A DNA stretch of 23,294 nucleotides from a virus (Duplodnaviria > Heunggongvirae > Uroviricota > Caudoviricetes), in IMG/VR virus record IMGVR_UViG_2703718831_000001, one strand, 5' to 3'. The position numbers and the translations under genes were made by a program. Positions 4,463 to 13,790 of the stretch are shown here, one piece after another. The notes beneath the pieces were generated by a model. It worked only from the letters and a program-made list of their open reading frames with translations. It made no database searches and had not been told where the DNA came from. Each line of letters opens with the position of its first letter. Positions within the stretch are counted from its first letter, which is position 1.

Positions 4463-5289
4463 AAGAAATGCACCACGGAATTCATCATTTCCATGGGACG
4501 CCTGTCTGGGGAAGTGCTGGCGACGTTCATCGTATTGCGGTGAGCGGAGCTGGCGCTTTCGTCTCCTATGTACGACCAGATCAGATTGCGGCGTCCATTC
4601 AGCACGCTCAGGTCGTCGGCATTGATAACGGCGCATTTTCTGCATGGGTGCGTGGGCTAAAAATTAACTGGAGTGATTTTTATAAATGGCTCCTGAACTA
4701 TTACCACCATCCTAAGGTCGCTTTTTTTGTCATTCCTGATGTTGTGGACGGAGGTGAACGTGACAATGATGCCCTGATAAACGAAGTTCCGAAAATGTTC
4801 TACGGGAAGGCAACTCCCGTCTGGCATCTGCACGAGTCAATCGATCGGCTTATCGAGCTATGTCGTGAATGGCCTCGTGTCTGCTTTGGATCGTCTGGTG
4901 AATATGCGGCTATCAGAACTGCGCACTGGCATCGTCGTATGCAGGACGCTTTTGAAGCAATTTATTGCCGACACAATTTCAAAACAGCTGTTCATGGTTT
5001 GCGCATGCTTGACGGTCGTGTGTTGGGAAATTACCCACTGGCGACTGCCGACAGTACAAATCTTGCCTGCAATGTCCCCAAATTTAATAGCAAATATCCT
5101 GAGCTGACGCGGGCTATTCAGGAGGCTGAGTATTCGCGCAATCTGACGGAAAAGGAGCTGAAAGCTGTCATTCTGAAAAACCGTTGCGCAATTTTAAAAG
5201 GTGCAATTGAAGCTGTTCGCCCACCTTCAGTTTCTGATTGGCTGTCGAATGGTTTGCAGCCTTCACAGCTCGAACTGGAGATTGCGTAA
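4459..5289 (+). CDS. Unassigned 276-aa protein; possibly a TGT-fold (DpdA-like) DNA transglycosylase
   Basis: ORF coupled to dam (GTGA overlap) and to gene A (TAATG overlap). Motifs in TGT-like order: VGIDNGAFS (cf. TDSGGFQ), [25 protein letters not shown] (cf. GIDMFDCV). No C-terminal zinc motif. The family call rests on motif resemblance only. Confidence 0.35.
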
Positions 5290-7661
5290 TGAACTACAGC
5301 TATTCCTGGAATGCTGAGAAAAAAGCAATCAATCCTTACGTAGAGACAGAAGAGCAATCTTCAGTTTCTGCGCTTTCAAACCTGATCGCTCTGTACGCTG
5401 CCGATAACGAGCAGGAACAGCTGCGCCGCGAGGCACTGAGTGATCAGGTCTGGGAGCGTTATTTCTTTAATGAATCCCGTGATCCTGTCCAGCGCGAAAT
5501 GGAGCAGGATAAGCTCATTAGTCGGGCAAAGCTGGCGCATGAGCAGCAGCGTTTTAATCCAGATATGGTCATTCTGGCGGACGTCAATGCCCAGCCTTCC
5601 CATATCAGCAAGCCACTGATGCAACGTATTGAATACTTCAGCAGCCTGGGCAGGCCAAAGGCTTATTCCCGCTATTTGCGTGAGACGATTAAGCCATGTC
5701 TGGAACGGCTGGAGCATGTACGCGACTGTCAGCTATCCACTTCTTTTCGCTTTATGGCAAGCCATGAAGGGCTGGACGGCCTGCTGATCCTGCCTGAAAT
5801 GAGTCAGGATCAGGTGAAACGCCTGTCCACCCTGGTAGCTGCGCATATGAGCATGTGCCTTGATGCAGCTTGTGGCGATTTGTATGTCACCGATGACGTT
5901 AAGCCAGAAGAAATCCGCAAGACATGGGAAAAGGTGGCAGCGGAAACCCTGCGTCTGGATGTCATCCCGCCTGCGTTTGAGCAACTCCGCCGGAAAAGAA
6001 ACCGCCGTAAACCCGTGCCCTATGAACTCATTCCGGGTTCGCTGGCGCGTATGTTGTGCGCTGACTGGTGGTACCGGAAATTATGGAAGATGCGTTGCGA
6101 ATGGCGGGAAGAGCAGTTGCGTGCTGTCTGCCTGGTCAGCAAAAAAGCATCTCCCTATGTCAGCTATGAAGCCGTGATGCATAAACGTGAGCAGCGCCGT
6201 AAGTCGCTGGAGTTTTTTCGTTCTCATGAACTGGTGAACGAAGACGGCGACACGCTGGACATGGAGGATGTGGTAAACGCCAGCAGCAGCAACCCTGCGC
6301 ATCGCCGCAATGAGATGATGGCCTGTGTTAAAGGCCTGGAGCTTATCGCGGAAATGCGCGGTGACTGCGCCGTTTTCTACACCATCACCTGTCCGTCACG
6401 TTTCCATTCCACGCTAAATAATGGCAGGCCCAACCCAACTTGGACAAATGCGACGGTAAGACAAAGCAGTGATTATCTGGTCGGCATGTTTGCTGCATTT
6501 CGTAAGGCGATGCACAAAGCCGGATTGCGGTGGTATGGCGTGCGGGTGGCTGAGCCGCATCATGACGGTACAGTTCACTGGCACCTGTTGTGTTTTATGC
6601 GCAAAAAAGACCGCCGCGCCATCACTGCATTACTGCGTAAGTTTGCCATCCGTGAAGACCGTGAGGAACTGGGCAATAACACTGGGCCGCGCTTTAAGTC
6701 TGAGTTGATTAACCCGCGCAAAGGTACGCCAACAAGCTACATCGCGAAATACATCAGTAAGAACATTGACGGGCGTGGTCTGGCTGGCGAGATCAGCAAG
6801 GAAACGGGGAAATCCCTGCGTGATAATGCTGAATACGTTAATGCCTGGGCGTCTCTGCATCGTGTTCAGCAATTCCGCTTCTTTGGCATTCCGGGGCGTC
6901 AGGCTTACCGTGAACTGCGATTGCTGGCTGGTCAGGCGGCAAGGCAACAGGGGGACAAAAAAGCAGGTGCGCCGGTACTGGATAACCCGCGCCTTGATGC
7001 CATCCTGGCTGCTGCTGATGCTGGTTGTTTTGCCACCTACATCATGAAGCAGGGCGGCGTACTGGTTCCCCGCAAATATCACCTCATCAGAACCGCTTAT
7101 GAAATCAACGAAGAGCCGACCGCCTATGGCGATCACGGCATTCGTATTTATGGCATCTGGTCACCTATTGCAGAGGGCAAGATCTGCACTCATGCCGTGA
7201 AGTGGAAAATGGTTCGTAAGGCCGTTGATGTTCAGGAGGCGGCAGCCGACCAGGGCGCTTGCGCCCCTTGGACTCGTGGCAATAACTGTCCCCTTGCTGA
7301 AAATTTGTACCAACAAGGGAAAGACAAATCAGCTGATGGAGATACCAGAACGGATATCACCCGCATGGATGACAAGGAGTTGCACGATTACCTGCACAGT
7401 ATGAGCAAAAAAGAGCGCCGGGAACTGGCAGCAAGGTTACGCCTGGTGAAACCGAAACGGCGTAAAGACTACAAACAGCGAATTACAGACCATCAGCGAC
7501 TGCAGCTCGTGTATGAACTGAAGTCCAGGGGATTTGATGGCAGCGAGAAAGAGGTCGATTTACTCCTTCGCGGCGGCAGTATTCCGTCAGGAGCAGGCCT
7601 GCGTATCTTCTATCGGAACCAGCGTTTGCAGGAAGATGATAAGTGGCGAAACCTGTATTAA
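5289..7661 (+). CDS. A: Replication initiation protein A (rolling-circle nicking endonuclease), P2 gpA family
   Basis: 790-aa ORF from the ATG at 5289 (overlapping the upstream stop). Contains an HUH-type metal motif ([13 protein letters not shown]) and a catalytic-tyrosine motif (SYIAKYISK). Size and position match P2/186 gene A. Confidence 0.9.
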
Positions 7662-7813: not shown

Positions 7814-8002
7814 ATGCAGGACTATTTTTTGGAGTCTTTGAAGCTCCAGCGCATTGATTTTTTTCTTAAGCTTGTAGCGGCTAGTGAGTGTAGTGATGAA
7901 GAGAAGGGGCTGGCTCTGCAGTGGGTTTCTGAACTGACAGATGAACTCATGGCAAAAATCAGAACCCACGAATACAACCGCTCAATGGATGTCATCAGCT
8001 GA
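7814..8002 (+). CDS. Small SOS-module protein; possible N-terminal part of a Tum-like antirepressor
   Basis: 62-aa ORF with AGGAGGA RBS, directly downstream of the LexA box. It is in a different frame from, and overlaps the open upstream extension of, the DinI-like ORF. Confidence 0.4.
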   Translation: MQDYFLESLKLQRIDFFLKLVAASECSDEEKGLALQWVSELTDELMAKIRTHEYNRSMDVIS

Positions 8003-8012
8003 GGTGACTTTT

Positions 8013-8246
8013 ATGCGCATTGAAATAATGATCGATAAAGAGCAGAAGATTAGCCAGTCTACACTGGACGCCCTTGAATCCGAGCTTTACCGCAATCTGC
8101 GCCCCCTGTATCCCAAAACGGTAATTCGTATCCGCAAAGGTAGCTCTAACGGTGTGGAACTTACCGGATTGCAACTGGACGAAGAAAGAAAACAAGTGAT
8201 GAAAATTATGCAGAAGGTGTGGGAAGACGACAGCTGGTTGCATTAA
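8013..8246 (+). CDS. DinI-family protein (C-terminal domain type of 186 Tum)
   Basis: 77-aa ORF starting MRIEIMIDKEQ and ending KIMQKVWEDDSWLH, matching the DinI pattern (MRIEV...ETWE..DW). GAGGTG RBS. Confidence 0.7.
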   Translation: MRIEIMIDKEQKISQSTLDALESELYRNLRPLYPKTVIRIRKGSSNGVELTGLQLDEERKQVMKIMQKVWEDDSWLH

Positions 8247-8457
8247 GAAACGTTGCTGGCGTCTGAACCTGCTTCTGGCGTCAGCAAGGTTGAACCGCGA
8301 GCCTTGAGAGGCGTTAACCATAAGTAAAAAGACAGTAATCACTTGATTATCTATCAGGGCGAGACCTATGCTGCACTTTTAGTTATAACTCATAATGTAT
8401 TGAAATTATTAGAATATATGTCATTCTTAAAATGTGTATGCTTATCAAGGAGCAAGA

Positions 8458-9330
8458 ATGAAACGTGGCATTGTAGCTAATCCTAATGAAATGAGTTTTC
8501 ATAGAAATAATAGTACGGTCTATCTTGGGGCAGGTTTAACTGAGCAGGATATTAATTATTTCTGCTTTTACTGGGATGATGTGGTTATTCTAGATAGTGA
8601 AAATATTCACTCGATTGTGCCTAAAGAAAAAGAATTATTAGATAATGGGGTATTACGTAGACCTATTATGAAACATGATGGTATGCTGAATATCCAAGAC
8701 TTTCCATTTTTATATACGGAATTTCAGTTGCAGACATTGGATGAATTCAGGAAGAACGAGCCTGCTACTTATTGGCACTTTCATCAAACAGGGGAGAATT
8801 TAATATATGATAAAGAACAGAAAACGGCCCTTCAGTTGAGATTGGAGTTGTTTAATGTTCTGAGAATTCCTGATAAAGATGCTCATATAGAAGATATATT
8901 ACGTTTTAAAGATGATTGTCAGGATGATCTTAATGCGTTACATGAGTACTTAGAAAAACTGTATACTGAAGTCCTTTATTCTAGAGACCCTAATCTAACG
9001 AGGGCTAAAAATTTTTCTTTATTACAAGAGGCTGTAGTTAATCTTGATAAAGCTATCGAAGGGAAATGGAGAAATCCTATCAGAATGGGAGTCAAAGTTA
9101 ATCCAGAAGTAGATGGTGGGCAGGTTATGGAATTTTTAAAACCGTTGTACCATGCTGCTATTGCTGGTGATTCAGGCGGTATTATTCCCGGTATGGTTAC
9201 AGCCTTGGCAACCGCAATTCCAAGTTTTATAAAATTCCAACCAGAATGGGTGGGCTTTAGAGATAAGGGGCCTAAAGAATTAGCTTATCTTACCAAAGCA
9301 ACGCATAAGGGGTTGATTAAGAGAGCTTAA
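8458..9330 (+). CDS. Hypothetical 291-aa cargo protein in the gene A-cos accessory locus; contains a GDSGG motif
   Basis: ORF from the ATG at 8458 with AGGAG RBS, in a markedly AT-rich segment unlike the phage backbone. No recognisable family. C-terminal AIAGDSGGIIPG resembles a serine-hydrolase nucleophile motif. Confidence 0.6.
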   Translation: MKRGIVANPNEMSFHRNNSTVYLGAGLTEQDINYFCFYWDDVVILDSENIHSIVPKEKELLDNGVLRRPIMKHDGMLNIQDFPFLYTEFQLQTLDEFRKNEPATYWHFHQTGENLIYDKEQKTALQLRLELFNVLRIPDKDAHIEDILRFKDDCQDDLNALHEYLEKLYTEVLYSRDPNLTRAKNFSLLQEAVVNLDKAIEGKWRNPIRMGVKVNPEVDGGQVMEFLKPLYHAAIAGDSGGIIPGMVTALATAIPSFIKFQPEWVGFRDKGPKELAYLTKATHKGLIKRA

Positions 9331-9432
9331 GGCATTTTAATCGATTTTCGCAACTATATTCCTTCGTAACCACACAAGTGCATGACTATGCCGCATGAAT
9401 CCGCATGATCGTTTGAGGATCGTTTTAGCTGA

Positions 9433-9460
9433 GGCCCGCTAGGAATGGCGGGCCTTTGCT
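9433..9460 (+). terminator. GC-rich hairpin followed by a short T-tract (putative terminator)
   Basis: GGCCCGC (9433-9439) / GCGGGCC (9448-9454) perfect 7-bp stem with an 8-nt loop, followed by TTTGCTT. Confidence 0.45.
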
Positions 9461-9502
9461 TATGTCATGCAGGCGCATGAAAACCACTACATAAAGCGGG
9501 CA

Positions 9503-9521
9503 GGCGTGGCGGGGATACGAG
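9503..9521. other. Candidate cos cohesive-end sequence (GGCGTGGCGGGGATACGAG)
   Basis: The first 13 nt match my recollection of the 186/P2 cohesive ends (GGCGTGGCGGGGAAAGCAT / GGCGAGGCGGGGAAAGCAC). It lies in a GC-rich island between two AT-rich cargo segments, with gene Q oriented toward it. It is about 1.5 kb from Q, farther than in P2. Confidence 0.35.
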
Positions 9522-9660
9522 CGCGCGTTGTGGCTTGCAGCGGTGATTCTTTACATAGTGTTATCTTGAATTTATTGTAGCATTTTCGTAACAAACTAAG
9601 GTTCTTCGATTGCATAGATAGGAAAAAGTGTTTGTTTGTTAGTCACTGCTTGATTACACT

Positions 9661-9737: not shown

Positions 9738-10310
9738 GTGCAGGTAGTTCATATAGGGTTTCATAACTGCCTTAATCGTGGCAGTTATGAGACGATACGG
9801 CAAAGCGTACCCTTTTTAAGCCGTTCAGGCCCTAAACAATGGTTAACTCAAGGTTACTATTTTTGGACTGATGACCCATACTGGGCTCATCAGTGGAACG
9901 AAGGTCATGATACGGTGATTAGTGAATTTTCTATCACCTTTGATTCAAAGGATGAGTTGCTTGATTTGGTTGGAAATGCTCGAGATATCAGGCAATTTGA
10001 AGCTATGCGTCAGAAAGTTGCCAGTACTTTGACTCGAATGAGCGCCTTGCATATCACAGTCAATCAGGTCATTAGCTTTTTTAGAGAGCTCGAGCAATCT
10101 GATGATTTTAAAGGCGTATTTCCATATGCTGCTGTTAAGGCACAAGATAGTACGAAAGTGTCTAATCTTATAAGACTTAACTTTGTAGATGAGCGCCCAG
10201 AACAGATGGTTTCATTTACCCGTCAGCAAATGTGTGTTTATGAACATGCTCGAGGTAAGATAGAGTTTAGAAGATTTATCTTTCCAGAGCATTTCTGTGA
10301 GAAGGATTAA
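9738..10310 (+). CDS. Hypothetical protein, first gene of a three-gene cargo operon
   Basis: 190-aa ORF with GTG start and AGAGAGGA RBS 5 nt upstream. AT-rich. No recognisable motif. Confidence 0.55.
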   Translation: MQVVHIGFHNCLNRGSYETIRQSVPFLSRSGPKQWLTQGYYFWTDDPYWAHQWNEGHDTVISEFSITFDSKDELLDLVGNARDIRQFEAMRQKVASTLTRMSALHITVNQVISFFRELEQSDDFKGVFPYAAVKAQDSTKVSNLIRLNFVDERPEQMVSFTRQQMCVYEHARGKIEFRRFIFPEHFCEKD

Positions 10311-10319
10311 GGAGGAAAA

Positions 10320-10553
10320 ATGCTTTCCTTTGAACAAAGAATGGCCTTACTTAACAAGGCATTACAGCAGTATACTCCTGAGTCGCTTTATGAAAAATTA
10401 AGCTCGTACCCGGCTTATGGACCAACAATCGTAAGCTACGAGCTTCCAAGCTCTGAAGGGTTCATTACATTGAGACCACGTCTGATCAATCATGCTGCTG
10501 AACGTTCAGTGGATTTCTTTTCAGATGATACTGAATTGGATTTAGCGGCCTGA
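10320..10553 (+). CDS. Hypothetical small protein, second gene of the cargo operon
   Basis: 77-aa ORF with a strong GGAGG RBS, 9 nt after the upstream stop. Confidence 0.5.
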   Translation: MLSFEQRMALLNKALQQYTPESLYEKLSSYPAYGPTIVSYELPSSEGFITLRPRLINHAAERSVDFFSDDTELDLAA

Positions 10554-10555
10554 CG

Positions 10556-10945
10556 ATGAAACTAAGATTACGGGATAATACTGTTACTCGACTGTTGTTT
10601 GTCGATGCTGAAGGGCGCAAAATCGAATCTGGTTTTGCGCTTCGATTTAAGCCCATTTTTGATGAAAATCCGCGCGAATTTTCAGTATTGTTTGATTTTT
10701 ATTACATTACTGAGAATGATCGGGCATTACGAGTCGAGTTTCAAAGTGTTTTTGAAACAGATAAAGACATTGACGATTCTTTTAAAGAATCGAAGTTTCC
10801 AGTTGTTAATGCTCCTGCGATATCGTTCCCGTTTTTACGTTCGTTTGTTGCCAATTTTTTGATGACAAGTGGGTATACACCGATCCTGCTTCCTAGCTTT
10901 AACTTTACAACTTTTGAACAGGATATCGGGAAGTTTCCTAACTGA
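10556..10945 (+). CDS. Hypothetical protein, third gene of the cargo operon
   Basis: 129-aa ORF whose ATG lies 2 nt after the upstream stop (TGACGATG), followed directly by a terminator. Confidence 0.5.
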   Translation: MKLRLRDNTVTRLLFVDAEGRKIESGFALRFKPIFDENPREFSVLFDFYYITENDRALRVEFQSVFETDKDIDDSFKESKFPVVNAPAISFPFLRSFVANFLMTSGYTPILLPSFNFTTFEQDIGKFPN

Positions 10946-10983: not shown

Positions 10984-12027
10984 TCAATTTTTATCTAAGC
11001 TCATGGTGTAAGGCTCGAAGCGGATCACTTCTTCACCAAGCCAGTCGTTAAGCTCCTGTAGCCTTTTCTGTAGTGGGATAAGTTCGTTGCGAACAAAAAC
11101 TTTGCTGGCTTTCTCTACATCCCCAAAACCCCCAACATTATTCGGCATAATCCCCATCATCTGTGGCGGAACACGATGCGCGGCCATCATGTCATCACGA
11201 CTCACGTTCTTGATGTTCAGAAATTCATCTTTCGCTGCGACTTCTGACAACGGGATGATCTGAAGCCCGTCCTTTTTGCCGTTAGGCGAGTACATAAACA
11301 GGTTGCGGAAGTTACCCGGTCCTTTGGCGCTTTTCATCGCGTGGCGGAGGTTGTTCACGTCCTCCTGGTTCTGCGCGGCATCGGTCATGTACATGATGAA
11401 GCCAGCATGACTGCCGTTTATGTAATACTTTCGACGGAACAGCGTGGCGGACTCATTGAGCAGGGCGGACGGAATAGCAGAAAGATAGCCGGGCAGGCCA
11501 TAGATCTCCTGATTTATGTCCGGTTCCATCAGATGGAAAATGCTGCCTTTCGTGAACTGATACGGCTGCGTGGTCATGCCGTATTGCACAAACCAGTAGG
11601 TATCCAGGTCTAACCCGCGTCGGGTGTATTTTGCCAGCGCAGGCTCAAGGGCGATAACTTCACCGAAGCGGTTAGTGCGTTTCTCCAGGTAGGCGTTACC
11701 AAATACCAGATAGTCCTGCACAAAACGCGAAAAAGCCTGCTGGCTGAGCAGCGGGTGAGGGATGTAGGTGCTGGTCAGAATGTTGCATTTCACCGCAATT
11801 GGTGAACTGTGATGCACGGCAGCGCGGAAGGTGCGCGCCAGTCCGTCAAAGCTGACAGGAGGCTCATACCAGCGATCTGTCTGTACGCATTCCACATAGT
11901 CCAGCAGTTCGCGGCGGTCAAGTACAGGAACGGGATCACCGAAGCTGAATGCTTCGGCTGAAGTCTGGCTTTTATGCTTGAGCTGATTCGTCGCCGCAGC
12001 GCGGTTTTTCTTACTCTTTCCCATCAA
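10984..12027 (-). CDS. Q: Portal protein, P2 gpQ family
   Basis: 347-aa ORF, same size as P2 gpQ, coupled to the upstream terminase ATPase gene and lying beside the cos-like region. Confidence 0.85.
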   Translation of the reverse strand: MMGKSKKNRAAATNQLKHKSQTSAEAFSFGDPVPVLDRRELLDYVECVQTDRWYEPPVSFDGLARTFRAAVHHSSPIAVKCNILTSTYIPHPLLSQQAFSRFVQDYLVFGNAYLEKRTNRFGEVIALEPALAKYTRRGLDLDTYWFVQYGMTTQPYQFTKGSIFHLMEPDINQEIYGLPGYLSAIPSALLNESATLFRRKYYINGSHAGFIMYMTDAAQNQEDVNNLRHAMKSAKGPGNFRNLFMYSPNGKKDGLQIIPLSEVAAKDEFLNIKNVSRDDMMAAHRVPPQMMGIMPNNVGGFGDVEKASKVFVRNELIPLQKRLQELNDWLGEEVIRFEPYTMSLDKN

Positions 12028-13790
12028 AAAATCTCCACAATATTGCTGGTATTGGCGGACTCGCCCTGCAGCGGTTCGTTAAACAGTGCGTGCATCGTTG
12101 CCCAGGCCAGATCGGCGTGGCTGGCTTCTTCGCTGCGGCTGGCTTCATAGGTCGGGCGGTTGCCACTGGCGGTGGTGGCGCGACGGATTGCCATAAATGA
12201 CTGCGCTATGTCGGTGTGTCCGGCGTCAAACTCCAGACGACGGTGACTGATAATGTCGTAGGCTTTGAGTACCAGGGCGTTTTTAACGTTGGGGTTGTAG
12301 ACAAACTCCCGGACGGCAGGAAAGAACGCTTTCACGTTCTCGTAAACCCCGTGACCGACACCTGTTGAGTCGATGCCGATATAGGTCACGTTGTACTGTT
12401 CGGTCAGTTTTTTGATGGCGTCAGCCTGGGCGCGGAAGTCCATCCCGCGCCACTGGTGACGCTCAAGAATGCGAAACTTACCGCCTGGCACGGCTGGCGG
12501 TGCCACCACCACGCATCCGGCGCTGTCGCCGTTCTGCGTACCTTTTGCCGGGTCATAACCGATCCACACCTCGCGCCAGCCAAACGGGCGCAGGGCCAGT
12601 GCATGAAAGTCGGTCCAGACTTCCCAACTGTCCACCATGCACGCCTGCAGTTCGCTGAGCGGGAACACGGACGCGAGATCGTCCACGAACTCGCACATCA
12701 GCAGGTTCTGGTATTCGTCCGGGCTGTACTCCATGCGTAGCTGGTCGAGGTCGAACAGGTTACAGCCGCCGCGCACCGCATCTTCCACGGTGACTATCTG
12801 GCGGTATTGCCCGTCTGCGCACAGCAGGCCGGGGGCCAGATTGCTGTGGGACAGGTCGATGTCCACCTTGTCGGCTTTGTTGCGTCCACGGTTGAACAGC
12901 GCACCGGACCAGAACGGATAAGCACTGTGGGTCAGGCTGGATGGCGTGGAAAAATAGGTTTGTCGCCATTTTTTGTGAATAGCCATACCGGAAGCCACTT
13001 TACGCAACTCCTGAAATTTCGGTATCCAGAAATATTCATCCAGATACAGGTTGCCGTGATAACTCTGGGCAGTGCGGGCATTGGTGCCGAGGAAGTAAAG
13101 CGTGGCACCGTTAGGAAGCACCATCGGATCACCTTTCAGCTCCACCTCCACTTCTTTGGCGAAGTCGATGATGTACTGCTTAAAGACGTGGGCCTGTGCC
13201 TTGCTGGCGGAAAGGAAAATCTGGTTACGTCCGGTCAGCAGGGCGTCAATCAGGGCTTCACGGGCAAAATAGAAGGTTGCGCCGATCTGGCGTGACTTCA
13301 GCAGGTTGCGGATGCGGTTGGTTTTTCCGGCTTCCCACCAGTGGCGCTGGTAGTTGAACATGGAGGAATGGAAGATTTCTTCCAGCTTCTCAATCTGTTC
13401 ATCGGTGAAAACATTCTTTTCCGGCTGACGGCGTGGGCCTTTGTTGCGGTTGGCGACGTTAGGGTTTAAGTCGGCTTCGTTGCCGCCATTGTTAAACTTG
13501 CCGATCCGCGCGTGGCGCTCCGACTGGCGCGCCAGCAGGTCAATCTCTTTGAAATCTTTCCCTTCTTTGTGCTCCTTCATAATGAGCTGGCAGTAGCGTG
13601 CGGCGGTGGTGAGCTGCATCTGATCCAGCGGCCCATAGTCACCCCACTTGTCGCGTTTTTTCCAGCTGTGAACAGTTGCAACTTTCTCGCCCAGCATTTC
13701 AGCAATGCGGGCGACGCGGTATCCCTGAAAGTACAGCAGCATGGCCTGCCGACGGGGATCGAGATCTGCGGGTGTCAGTGTGGTGTTCAT
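12024..13790 (-). CDS. P: Terminase large (ATPase) subunit, P2 gpP family
   Basis: 588-aa ORF (P2 gpP is about 590 aa) in a P-Q operon divergent from O-N-M. Confidence 0.85.
   Translation of the reverse strand: MNTTLTPADLDPRRQAMLLYFQGYRVARIAEMLGEKVATVHSWKKRDKWGDYGPLDQMQLTTAARYCQLIMKEHKEGKDFKEIDLLARQSERHARIGKFNNGGNEADLNPNVANRNKGPRRQPEKNVFTDEQIEKLEEIFHSSMFNYQRHWWEAGKTNRIRNLLKSRQIGATFYFAREALIDALLTGRNQIFLSASKAQAHVFKQYIIDFAKEVEVELKGDPMVLPNGATLYFLGTNARTAQSYHGNLYLDEYFWIPKFQELRKVASGMAIHKKWRQTYFSTPSSLTHSAYPFWSGALFNRGRNKADKVDIDLSHSNLAPGLLCADGQYRQIVTVEDAVRGGCNLFDLDQLRMEYSPDEYQNLLMCEFVDDLASVFPLSELQACMVDSWEVWTDFHALALRPFGWREVWIGYDPAKGTQNGDSAGCVVVAPPAVPGGKFRILERHQWRGMDFRAQADAIKKLTEQYNVTYIGIDSTGVGHGVYENVKAFFPAVREFVYNPNVKNALVLKAYDIISHRRLEFDAGHTDIAQSFMAIRRATTASGNRPTYEASRSEEASHADLAWATMHALFNEPLQGESANTSNIVEIF

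Follow-up and report, generated by a model that had tools for sequence, protein, structure and literature searches.

The gene considered here lies at positions 8458-9330 (plus strand, stop codon included) of the IMG/VR virus record IMGVR_UViG_2703718831_000001, a stretch of 23,294 nucleotides of tailed-phage (Caudoviricetes) DNA which was analysed at its full length and is called the window below. The gene encodes a member of the DUF6236 protein family, an assignment made from the list of open reading frames (ORFs), from Pfam (PF19749) and from phrog_23128. The window is a P2-like prophage, with the gpA replication endonuclease gene at 5238-7661 and, on the minus strand, the portal gene (10984-12027), the terminase gene (12024-13790) and then the capsid genes. 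Having gpA and a DinI-like gene on one side and the portal gene on the other, the DUF6236 gene occupies the site which in P2 holds old and tin and, as a variable gene between gpA and the portal gene gpQ, forms part of the cargo of the P2 gpA-gpQ hotspot. A first-pass annotation of the window, made from the letters alone, had described an AT-rich gene at the old/tin position, and both parts of this description are borne out, the GC content of 8501-9000 being 0.34, while the phage backbone has 0.52-0.60. A single long ORF runs on the plus strand from the ATG at 8458 to the stop codon at 9328-9330, and no competing ORF of 40 amino acids or more is found inside 8458-9330 on either strand. The protein has 290 residues and not the 291 given at first, a figure which corresponds to the number of codons with the stop included. 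A Shine-Dalgarno sequence, AGGAG, can be read on the plus strand at 8449-8453, 4 nt before the ATG, and the DinI-like gene is separated from the start codon by an AT-rich gap of 211 bp (8250-8457) in which no match to the sigma-70 consensus occurs.

The first-pass annotation recognized no family for this protein; it is in fact a clear member of DUF6236, matching PF19749 at E 1e-20 with 74.6 bits against a cut-off of 26.2, and with residues 35-281 aligned to positions 75-319 of the 324 in the model. The match to phrog_23128 (E 4e-31) agrees with this, as does the annotation of the identical protein in RefSeq genomes of Escherichia coli as ‘DUF6236 family protein’. DUF6236 is the only Pfam match of the query at E<=1, and NCBIfam gave no match for the query. 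All homologues examined, 120 of 120 in one set and 135 of 135 in another, belong to DUF6236, and the latter, which are distant representatives, match nothing but DUF6236 in Pfam. The family is large: an exhaustive profile search recovered at least 1000 clusters (50% identity) at E<=1e-3 and 461 at E<=1e-10, nearly all representatives being single-domain proteins of about 285 residues, and 57 viral loci in IMG/VR carry a family member. Two further searches returned less, as a scan of genome contigs with the family alignment found one locus only, and a homologue search started from distant representatives gave 28 proteins, mostly on short contigs. The conserved core consists of R3-G4, Y38-W39-D40, W106, P138, F150-K151, Y169, D177 and Y277; of these, G4, Y38, W39, D40, W106, P138, F150, K151 and Y277 are at least 90% conserved in the distant representatives, and all of them are present in the query.

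The DUF6236 gene is under purifying selection and is functional. Among close alleles the ratio of nonsynonymous to synonymous substitution rates (dN/dS) is 0.17-0.38, while comparison with alleles of 60-69% identity gives a dN of 0.21-0.31 at saturated synonymous sites. This bears on the possibility that the ORF is decaying or non-functional, a piece of junk in the hotspot cargo. Signs of decay can be found in individual strains: in E. coli LF4-1 (L004, 5760-6632) a frameshift splits the gene into two ORFs, and in E. coli ZH177 (H3/H19) the matched cassette region includes an IS1B element, located inside the cassette or adjoining it. Against this stand an ORF of 290 codons which is intact in DNA of 34% GC, a length of about 285 residues kept over at least 1000 clusters, the strong purifying selection, and a structure model of good confidence for the greater part of the protein, so that junk cargo is a very improbable description of the gene.

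The feature which had drawn most attention to this protein is the pentapeptide GDSGG within the peptide AIAGDSGGIIPG, read by the first-pass annotation as the possible mark of an unusual serine hydrolase effector, trypsin-like or other, in which the serine would be the nucleophile. The peptide is indeed present, GDSGG comprising residues 237-241 (codons at 9166-9180, plus strand) in the last fifth of the protein, placed much as in the S1 proteases. The pentapeptide is also improbable by composition, arising 25 times when the protein's residues were shuffled 200,000 times (about 1e-4), which makes it improbable in any single protein, and His109, His143 and His162, together with several aspartates, are invariant within the closest subfamily. 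Conservation of the motif itself, on which such a reading depends, is nevertheless lacking. Across the 120 homologues Ser239 is kept in seven and Asp238 in three, and the looser pattern GxSxG occurs at the aligned place in five. Eleven homologues of 34-87% identity display at this place GFSSG, GFSAG, GAFGG, GYYGG, GSMGG, GSMEG, NMHGG, GSYGG or NPFET, and those with one of the first six are 60-87% identical to the query. No column of serine or histidine reaches 70% among the distant representatives, where H109 stands at 61% and H162 at 65%.

Even within E. coli, GDSGG is the rarer form. In the 90%-identity cluster 45 contigs carry the GDSGG allele and 24 the cluster representative, while an allele reading GYSGG was found on at least 1000; GYSGG is likewise present in three of the four alleles read from complete genomes, and in the representative given in Table S5B of Rousset et al. 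2022, which comes from the same P2 hotspot and differs from the window protein by two residues. A tyrosine or an aspartate at position 238 is thus what separates the commonest E. coli allele from that of the window. The motif is improbable in shuffled sequences, yet it lies in a stretch rich in Gly, Ala, Ser and Thr in which one substitution is enough to create it. GDSGG is coincidental, a single-residue polymorphism (Y/D at 238) in a hydrophobic stretch rich in Gly, Ala and Ser, and the caution with which the motif had been introduced, that it might be a coincidence, was well placed.

The predicted structure leads to the same result. An AlphaFold2 model, built from an alignment of 119 sequences, has a mean predicted local distance difference test score (pLDDT) of 75.4 and a predicted template modeling score of 0.77. 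It shows a mixed alpha/beta fold with long helices at 79-100, 144-175, 184-201 and 221-236 and no double beta-barrel; the two six-stranded beta-barrels of a chymotrypsin fold are accordingly absent from it. The sole long segment of low confidence (pLDDT <50) is 237-255, and GDSGG falls inside it. A structure prediction followed by a Foldseek search had been proposed as the check on the hydrolase idea; the search against PDB and BFVD gave nothing at E<=1e-3, with TM-scores of at most 0.28, and no fold resembling that of a hydrolase emerged. The Rossmann-like and CARF structures among the PDB matches (Sso2081, Cad1, Csm6', Cami1, UGTs and PPAT) are insignificant, with E values of at least 0.04 and TM-scores of at most 0.23, and the family profile matched no PDB sequence. 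No protease or hydrolase family or fold was matched in Pfam, NCBIfam, the PDB profile search or Foldseek. Within the limits of these tools, the model would appear to hold no hydrolase-like active site.

What the protein shares with the S1 chymotrypsin/trypsin-like proteases is limited to the pentapeptide and the placing of this motif in the C-terminal fifth. An S1 fold, and the conservation typical of S1 enzymes, in which the serine belongs to a GDSGG kept among homologues, are absent from the DUF6236 protein; a triad appears to be absent as well, with no histidine column conserved among distant members and the serine in the segment of pLDDT <50. Nor does it resemble an alpha/beta-hydrolase or an SGNH/GDSL enzyme, the motif being C-terminal, non-conserved and of low confidence and matches to such families or folds being absent. 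The DUF6236 protein is not a serine hydrolase; to judge from the aligned sequences, the conservation data effectively refute the proposal that the GDSGG serine acts as a nucleophile, which retains almost no probability.

The segment which contains the end of this motif may be of interest for another reason. The most hydrophobic 19-residue stretch of the protein, GGIIPGMVTALATAIPSFI, covers residues 240-258 (9175-9231, plus strand) and averages 1.55 on the Kyte-Doolittle scale. Of 245 family members, 94% have their hydrophobic maximum at the corresponding relative position, between 0.75 and 0.92 of the length, with a median Kyte-Doolittle mean of 1.51 and a mean of at least 1.6 in 30%. The sequence of the stretch varies, while its hydrophobic character, rich in Gly, Ala and Val, is kept. 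The low AlphaFold confidence over 237-255 overlaps the segment, and in a few members weak matches to the membrane-segment families DUF3482, DUF1269 and SLATT_6 fall there. It is hypothesized from these properties that the segment at residues 240-258 may associate with the membrane. Several observations speak for caution, as the maximum in the query, 1.55, is just below the classical transmembrane threshold of 1.6, Phobius reported no transmembrane domain in the Table S5B representative, and the segment could instead be a buried or flexible element.

Comparison with related prophages defines the DNA unit to which the DUF6236 gene belongs. In E. coli MFDS1006657 no more than 7 bp separate the positions corresponding to 8316 and 9377, the rest being 98-99% identical and CmdTAC following. 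Because of this junction the interval 8317-9376 (plus strand) can be delimited as an AT-rich presence/absence cassette of 1,060 bp, the DUF6236 cargo cassette, which fills the first slot of the hotspot, a right-end slot from dinI to cos. Next to it lies a non-coding backbone segment conserved in the P2 family (9377-9528), which is 80-95% identical in 78 P2-like phage records and separates the first cargo slot from the second. Homology between DUF6236-bearing prophages and the window stops at 9527/9528, and breaks in homology between prophages were observed at 8316/8317, 9376/9377 and 9527/9528. Within the backbone segment the 19-mer GGCGTGGCGGGGATACGAG at 9503-9521 (plus strand) is unique in the window and was matched in none of 100 shuffles; it is a putative cos site, so named by resemblance. 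The sequence which it resembles is that of the P2 cohesive end in the P2 old-tin clone listed by Rousset et al. 2022 (Table S2). The arrangement of these segments suggests that the A-Q hotspot is made up of two slots which swap independently on either side of cos, and that the DUF6236 gene would belong to the dinI-cos slot and CmdTAC to the cos-portal slot.

CmdTAC, the cargo of the second slot, is a toxin-antitoxin-chaperone system in which mRNA is ADP-ribosylated by the toxin (PMC11618068, PMC9519451). In the window it comprises cmdT (9738-10310), cmdA (10320-10553) and the SecB-like cmdC (10556-10945), all on the plus strand, which match the PADLOC models PD-T4-9_A, PD-T4-9_B and PD-T4-9_C at E 2.8e-96, 5.1e-39 and 1.1e-60, with a SecB-like match in Pfam as well. 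Positions 9738-10945 thus hold a complete CmdTAC (PD-T4-9) defense operon, which is a neighbor of the DUF6236 unit and not a part of it. The earlier description of the DUF6236 gene as stand-alone cargo holds in the sense that the gene forms a self-contained, horizontally acquired unit of one gene, and has to be amended in that CmdTAC shares the hotspot with it.

The proximity of the two units raises the question whether the DUF6236 protein serves CmdTAC, or whichever system lies downstream, in an accessory or regulatory capacity. The two share hotspot and orientation and adjoin each other, both in the window and in the IMG/VR locus L014, which is identical to the window and so carries the same co-oriented pair; the pairing is further indicated in several draft E. 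coli genomes by adjacent NCBI accession numbers. The units are nevertheless separate cassettes on the two sides of the cos-like site, with about 400 bp of conserved backbone, the cos-like site included, between them, and their inheritance is independent. CmdTAC occurs without a DUF6236 gene in MFDS1006657 and 23CRST025, and the published system, consisting of three genes, suffices for defense when cloned alone (PMC11618068). Conversely, the DUF6236 cassette may be followed by any of four unrelated systems, namely ABC-three-component (ABC-3C), AIPR, PIN_12 and CmdTAC, or by none: no other cargo is present in TB06053, while ABC-3C lies downstream in MEI005 and an AIPR protein in S163-2. DUF6236 and CmdTAC are found together in none of the collection's complete E. 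coli genomes, and the DUF6236 protein matches no PD-T4-9 model. The gene is thus neither co-inherited with CmdTAC nor required by it, and independent inheritance, as read from the arrangement of the loci, largely excludes an accessory role in CmdTAC, which appears highly unlikely.

The DUF6236 cassette is carried by about 22 of 5,426 complete E. coli genomes, and an allele of 60% identity is the only cargo between DinI and the portal gene in four P2-like loci, at least 17 similar places being recorded besides. Outside the P2-like prophages, homologues of about 30% identity occur in lambdoid prophages with differing packaging modules, where they have the lysis cassette on one side and the terminase genes, or HNH and terminase genes, on the other; the hosts of these prophages are Klebsiella, Enterobacter, E. 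coli, Providencia and Serratia. In Vibrio cyclitrophicus another homologue occupies the very end of prophage elements. The DUF6236 unit is a single-gene, mobile and functional accessory cassette of the prophage.

The gene, its location and its family have already been catalogued. Table S5B of Rousset et al. 2022 lists ‘System #125, DUF6236’ with 23 occurrences in the P2 hotspot (PMC9122126), and the window protein is a full member of System #125, of PF19749 and of phrog_23128, having the same length and single-domain architecture and differing from the System #125 representative in the aspartate at 238 where the common allele has tyrosine. It is a candidate anti-phage gene. Experiments have established the P2 gpA-gpQ locus as a reservoir of anti-phage systems (PMC9122126, PMC9519451, PMC13586616). 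Because the cassette lies in this locus, can be its sole cargo, swaps in the manner of defense cargo and has relatives in the accessory slots of unrelated prophages, we infer that the DUF6236 protein protects the lysogen against other phages, with a probability of roughly 0.4-0.5. It would act as a stand-alone accessory (‘moron’) protein of the prophage, shielding the lysogen from other phages.

The closest parallels in the same position are the old and tin genes of P2, which occupy the same slot from gpA to cos and are, like the DUF6236 gene, AT-rich foreign cargo. Old and tin are expressed from the prophage and exclude other phages, Old being an ATPase-Toprim nuclease while Tin targets the single-stranded DNA-binding protein of T-even phages. 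In sequence and domains they are unrelated to DUF6236, which has neither nuclease nor ATPase motifs. A nearer functional analogue, indeed the nearest, is Rst_DUF4238 (pFR101, active against T7; PMC9122126), likewise a single protein of about 300 residues encoded by a stand-alone cassette in the P2 gpA-gpQ hotspot, with the difference that DUF4238 has a demonstrated phenotype. Homology between DUF6236 and DUF4238 was considered and is ruled out, as hhalign gave a probability of 0.07% (E 0.69) and the two show no cross-match in Pfam.

A number of observations weigh against a defensive role. In the literature searched, no experiment on DUF6236 in defense and no main-text mention of it was found, and DUF6236 is not included among the systems cloned by Rousset et al. 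2022 (Table S2; PMC9122126). The query has no match in PADLOC-DB v2.0.0 at E<=1. Residence in the hotspot is circumstantial evidence only, since such hotspots also hold cargo unrelated to defense, the commonest ‘system’ of Table S5B being StbA/Plasmid_stab_B (PMC9122126). Upstream of the gene, a scan for the sigma-70 consensus detected no promoter. In ECOR22, furthermore, deletion of cmdTAC alone raised the plating of T4 at least 10^3-fold (PMC11618068), so that, if the ECOR22 prophage also carries DUF6236, DUF6236 does not stop T4. Among the 135 distant members the only PADLOC matches were to the models E2, E1-E2 and PDC-S12, which at first suggested a connection with ubiquitin-like conjugation; these originate from an 18-residue SEC-C motif in three proteins and are therefore no evidence on the DUF6236 domain itself.

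In the main alternative the protein has an accessory role other than defense, either as a counter-defense factor or a helper in the lytic cycle, or as a factor for lysogenic conversion or host fitness. In the lambdoid prophages the DUF6236 gene belongs to the late operon, co-oriented with it and flanked by the lysis genes and terminase, where it would be expressed during lytic growth; the lack of a recognizable upstream promoter in the window and of a match to any known defense family would be in keeping with this, as would the frequent position of DUF6236 in P2-like prophages beside a bona fide defense system which it does not replace. On the other side, the distribution of the gene is patchy, with 23 occurrences among many thousands of P2 hotspot loci (Rousset et al.) and 22 of the 5,426 complete E. 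coli genomes, the first-slot cassette takes the place of cargo of the old/tin type, many P2-like prophages have no other hotspot cargo, and the AT-rich composition of the cassette is foreign. Patchiness, slot, sole-cargo status and composition fit swappable defense cargo, none of them being decisive, and a role outside defense is considered unlikely, though a serious competitor.

As to how protection of the lysogen might be achieved, the cytoplasmic body, with its alpha/beta and helical elements and the conserved residues, would be the part which senses a signal or binds a partner, while the hydrophobic segment rich in Gly and Ala (residues ~240-258) would provide the output, most plausibly by associating with or inserting into the membrane. 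That the soluble body senses or binds a component of the phage or the host and that the hydrophobic segment then acts at the membrane is speculative, and this particular division of labor is rather improbable as it stands. A wider proposal may be put forward tentatively, as less likely than not: DUF6236 may represent a new and widespread family of single-protein anti-phage factors, working by superinfection exclusion or abortive infection, which is plugged as a cassette into P2-like, lambdoid and Vibrio prophages, acts through the hydrophobic segment near its C-terminus and not through a catalytic serine, and has a fold without a solved relative or one in the viral database.

The removal of the serine hydrolase lead as false leaves a large family without a fold relative, which is under purifying selection and recurs in swappable accessory slots of three unrelated types of prophage, in many cases as sole cargo of the P2 hotspot. 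With its known boundaries, the 1,060-bp cassette is a well-defined candidate for a single-gene defense, and the two-slot architecture proposed above bears on how hotspot cargo is delimited and counted.

The remaining observations concern the surroundings of the gene in the window and in its relatives. The conserved genes which flank the hotspot on the gpA side are a phrog_698 ORF (7814-8002, plus strand) and the DinI-like gene, also on the plus strand, whose ORF was called from 7941, with a RefSeq-style start at about 8013, and which ends at 8246. Beyond the DUF6236 stop codon a GC-rich hairpin with the arms AGGCCCGC and GCGGGCCT, followed by TTGCTT, can be read on the plus strand at 9432-9455; it is a possible weak terminator for the cargo of the first slot, and a consensus terminator scan did not call it. 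In Hafnia alvei (L072-L074, 7001-9836) a DUF6236 gene of 69% identity lies in a degraded P2 remnant with a portal fragment and Ogr, adjoining a gene for a 561-residue AAA_15/AAA_21 ATPase and beside a chaperone-usher fimbrial operon. The zinc-binding SEC-C motif is fused N-terminally to three distant DUF6236 members, among them P0265 and P0159. In lambdoid prophages of Enterobacter and Klebsiella a protein of 485 residues recurs just downstream of DUF6236 (L006 7060-8517, L007 1954-3411, and likewise in L049, L053, L056, L057, L060 and L065); its only family match is a sub-threshold one to Glycos_transf_2 (E 0.006), and it may be another moron. As a partner of DUF6236 it is ruled out, being absent in P2 contexts and inconsistently adjacent. 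Finally, a small ORF without an equivalent in the window is located directly 3' of the DUF6236 gene in several lambdoid prophages, coding for 48 residues in Providencia and Serratia (L080 7860-8006; L082 7877-8023) and for 62 residues in Klebsiella (L008-L011 7108-7296).

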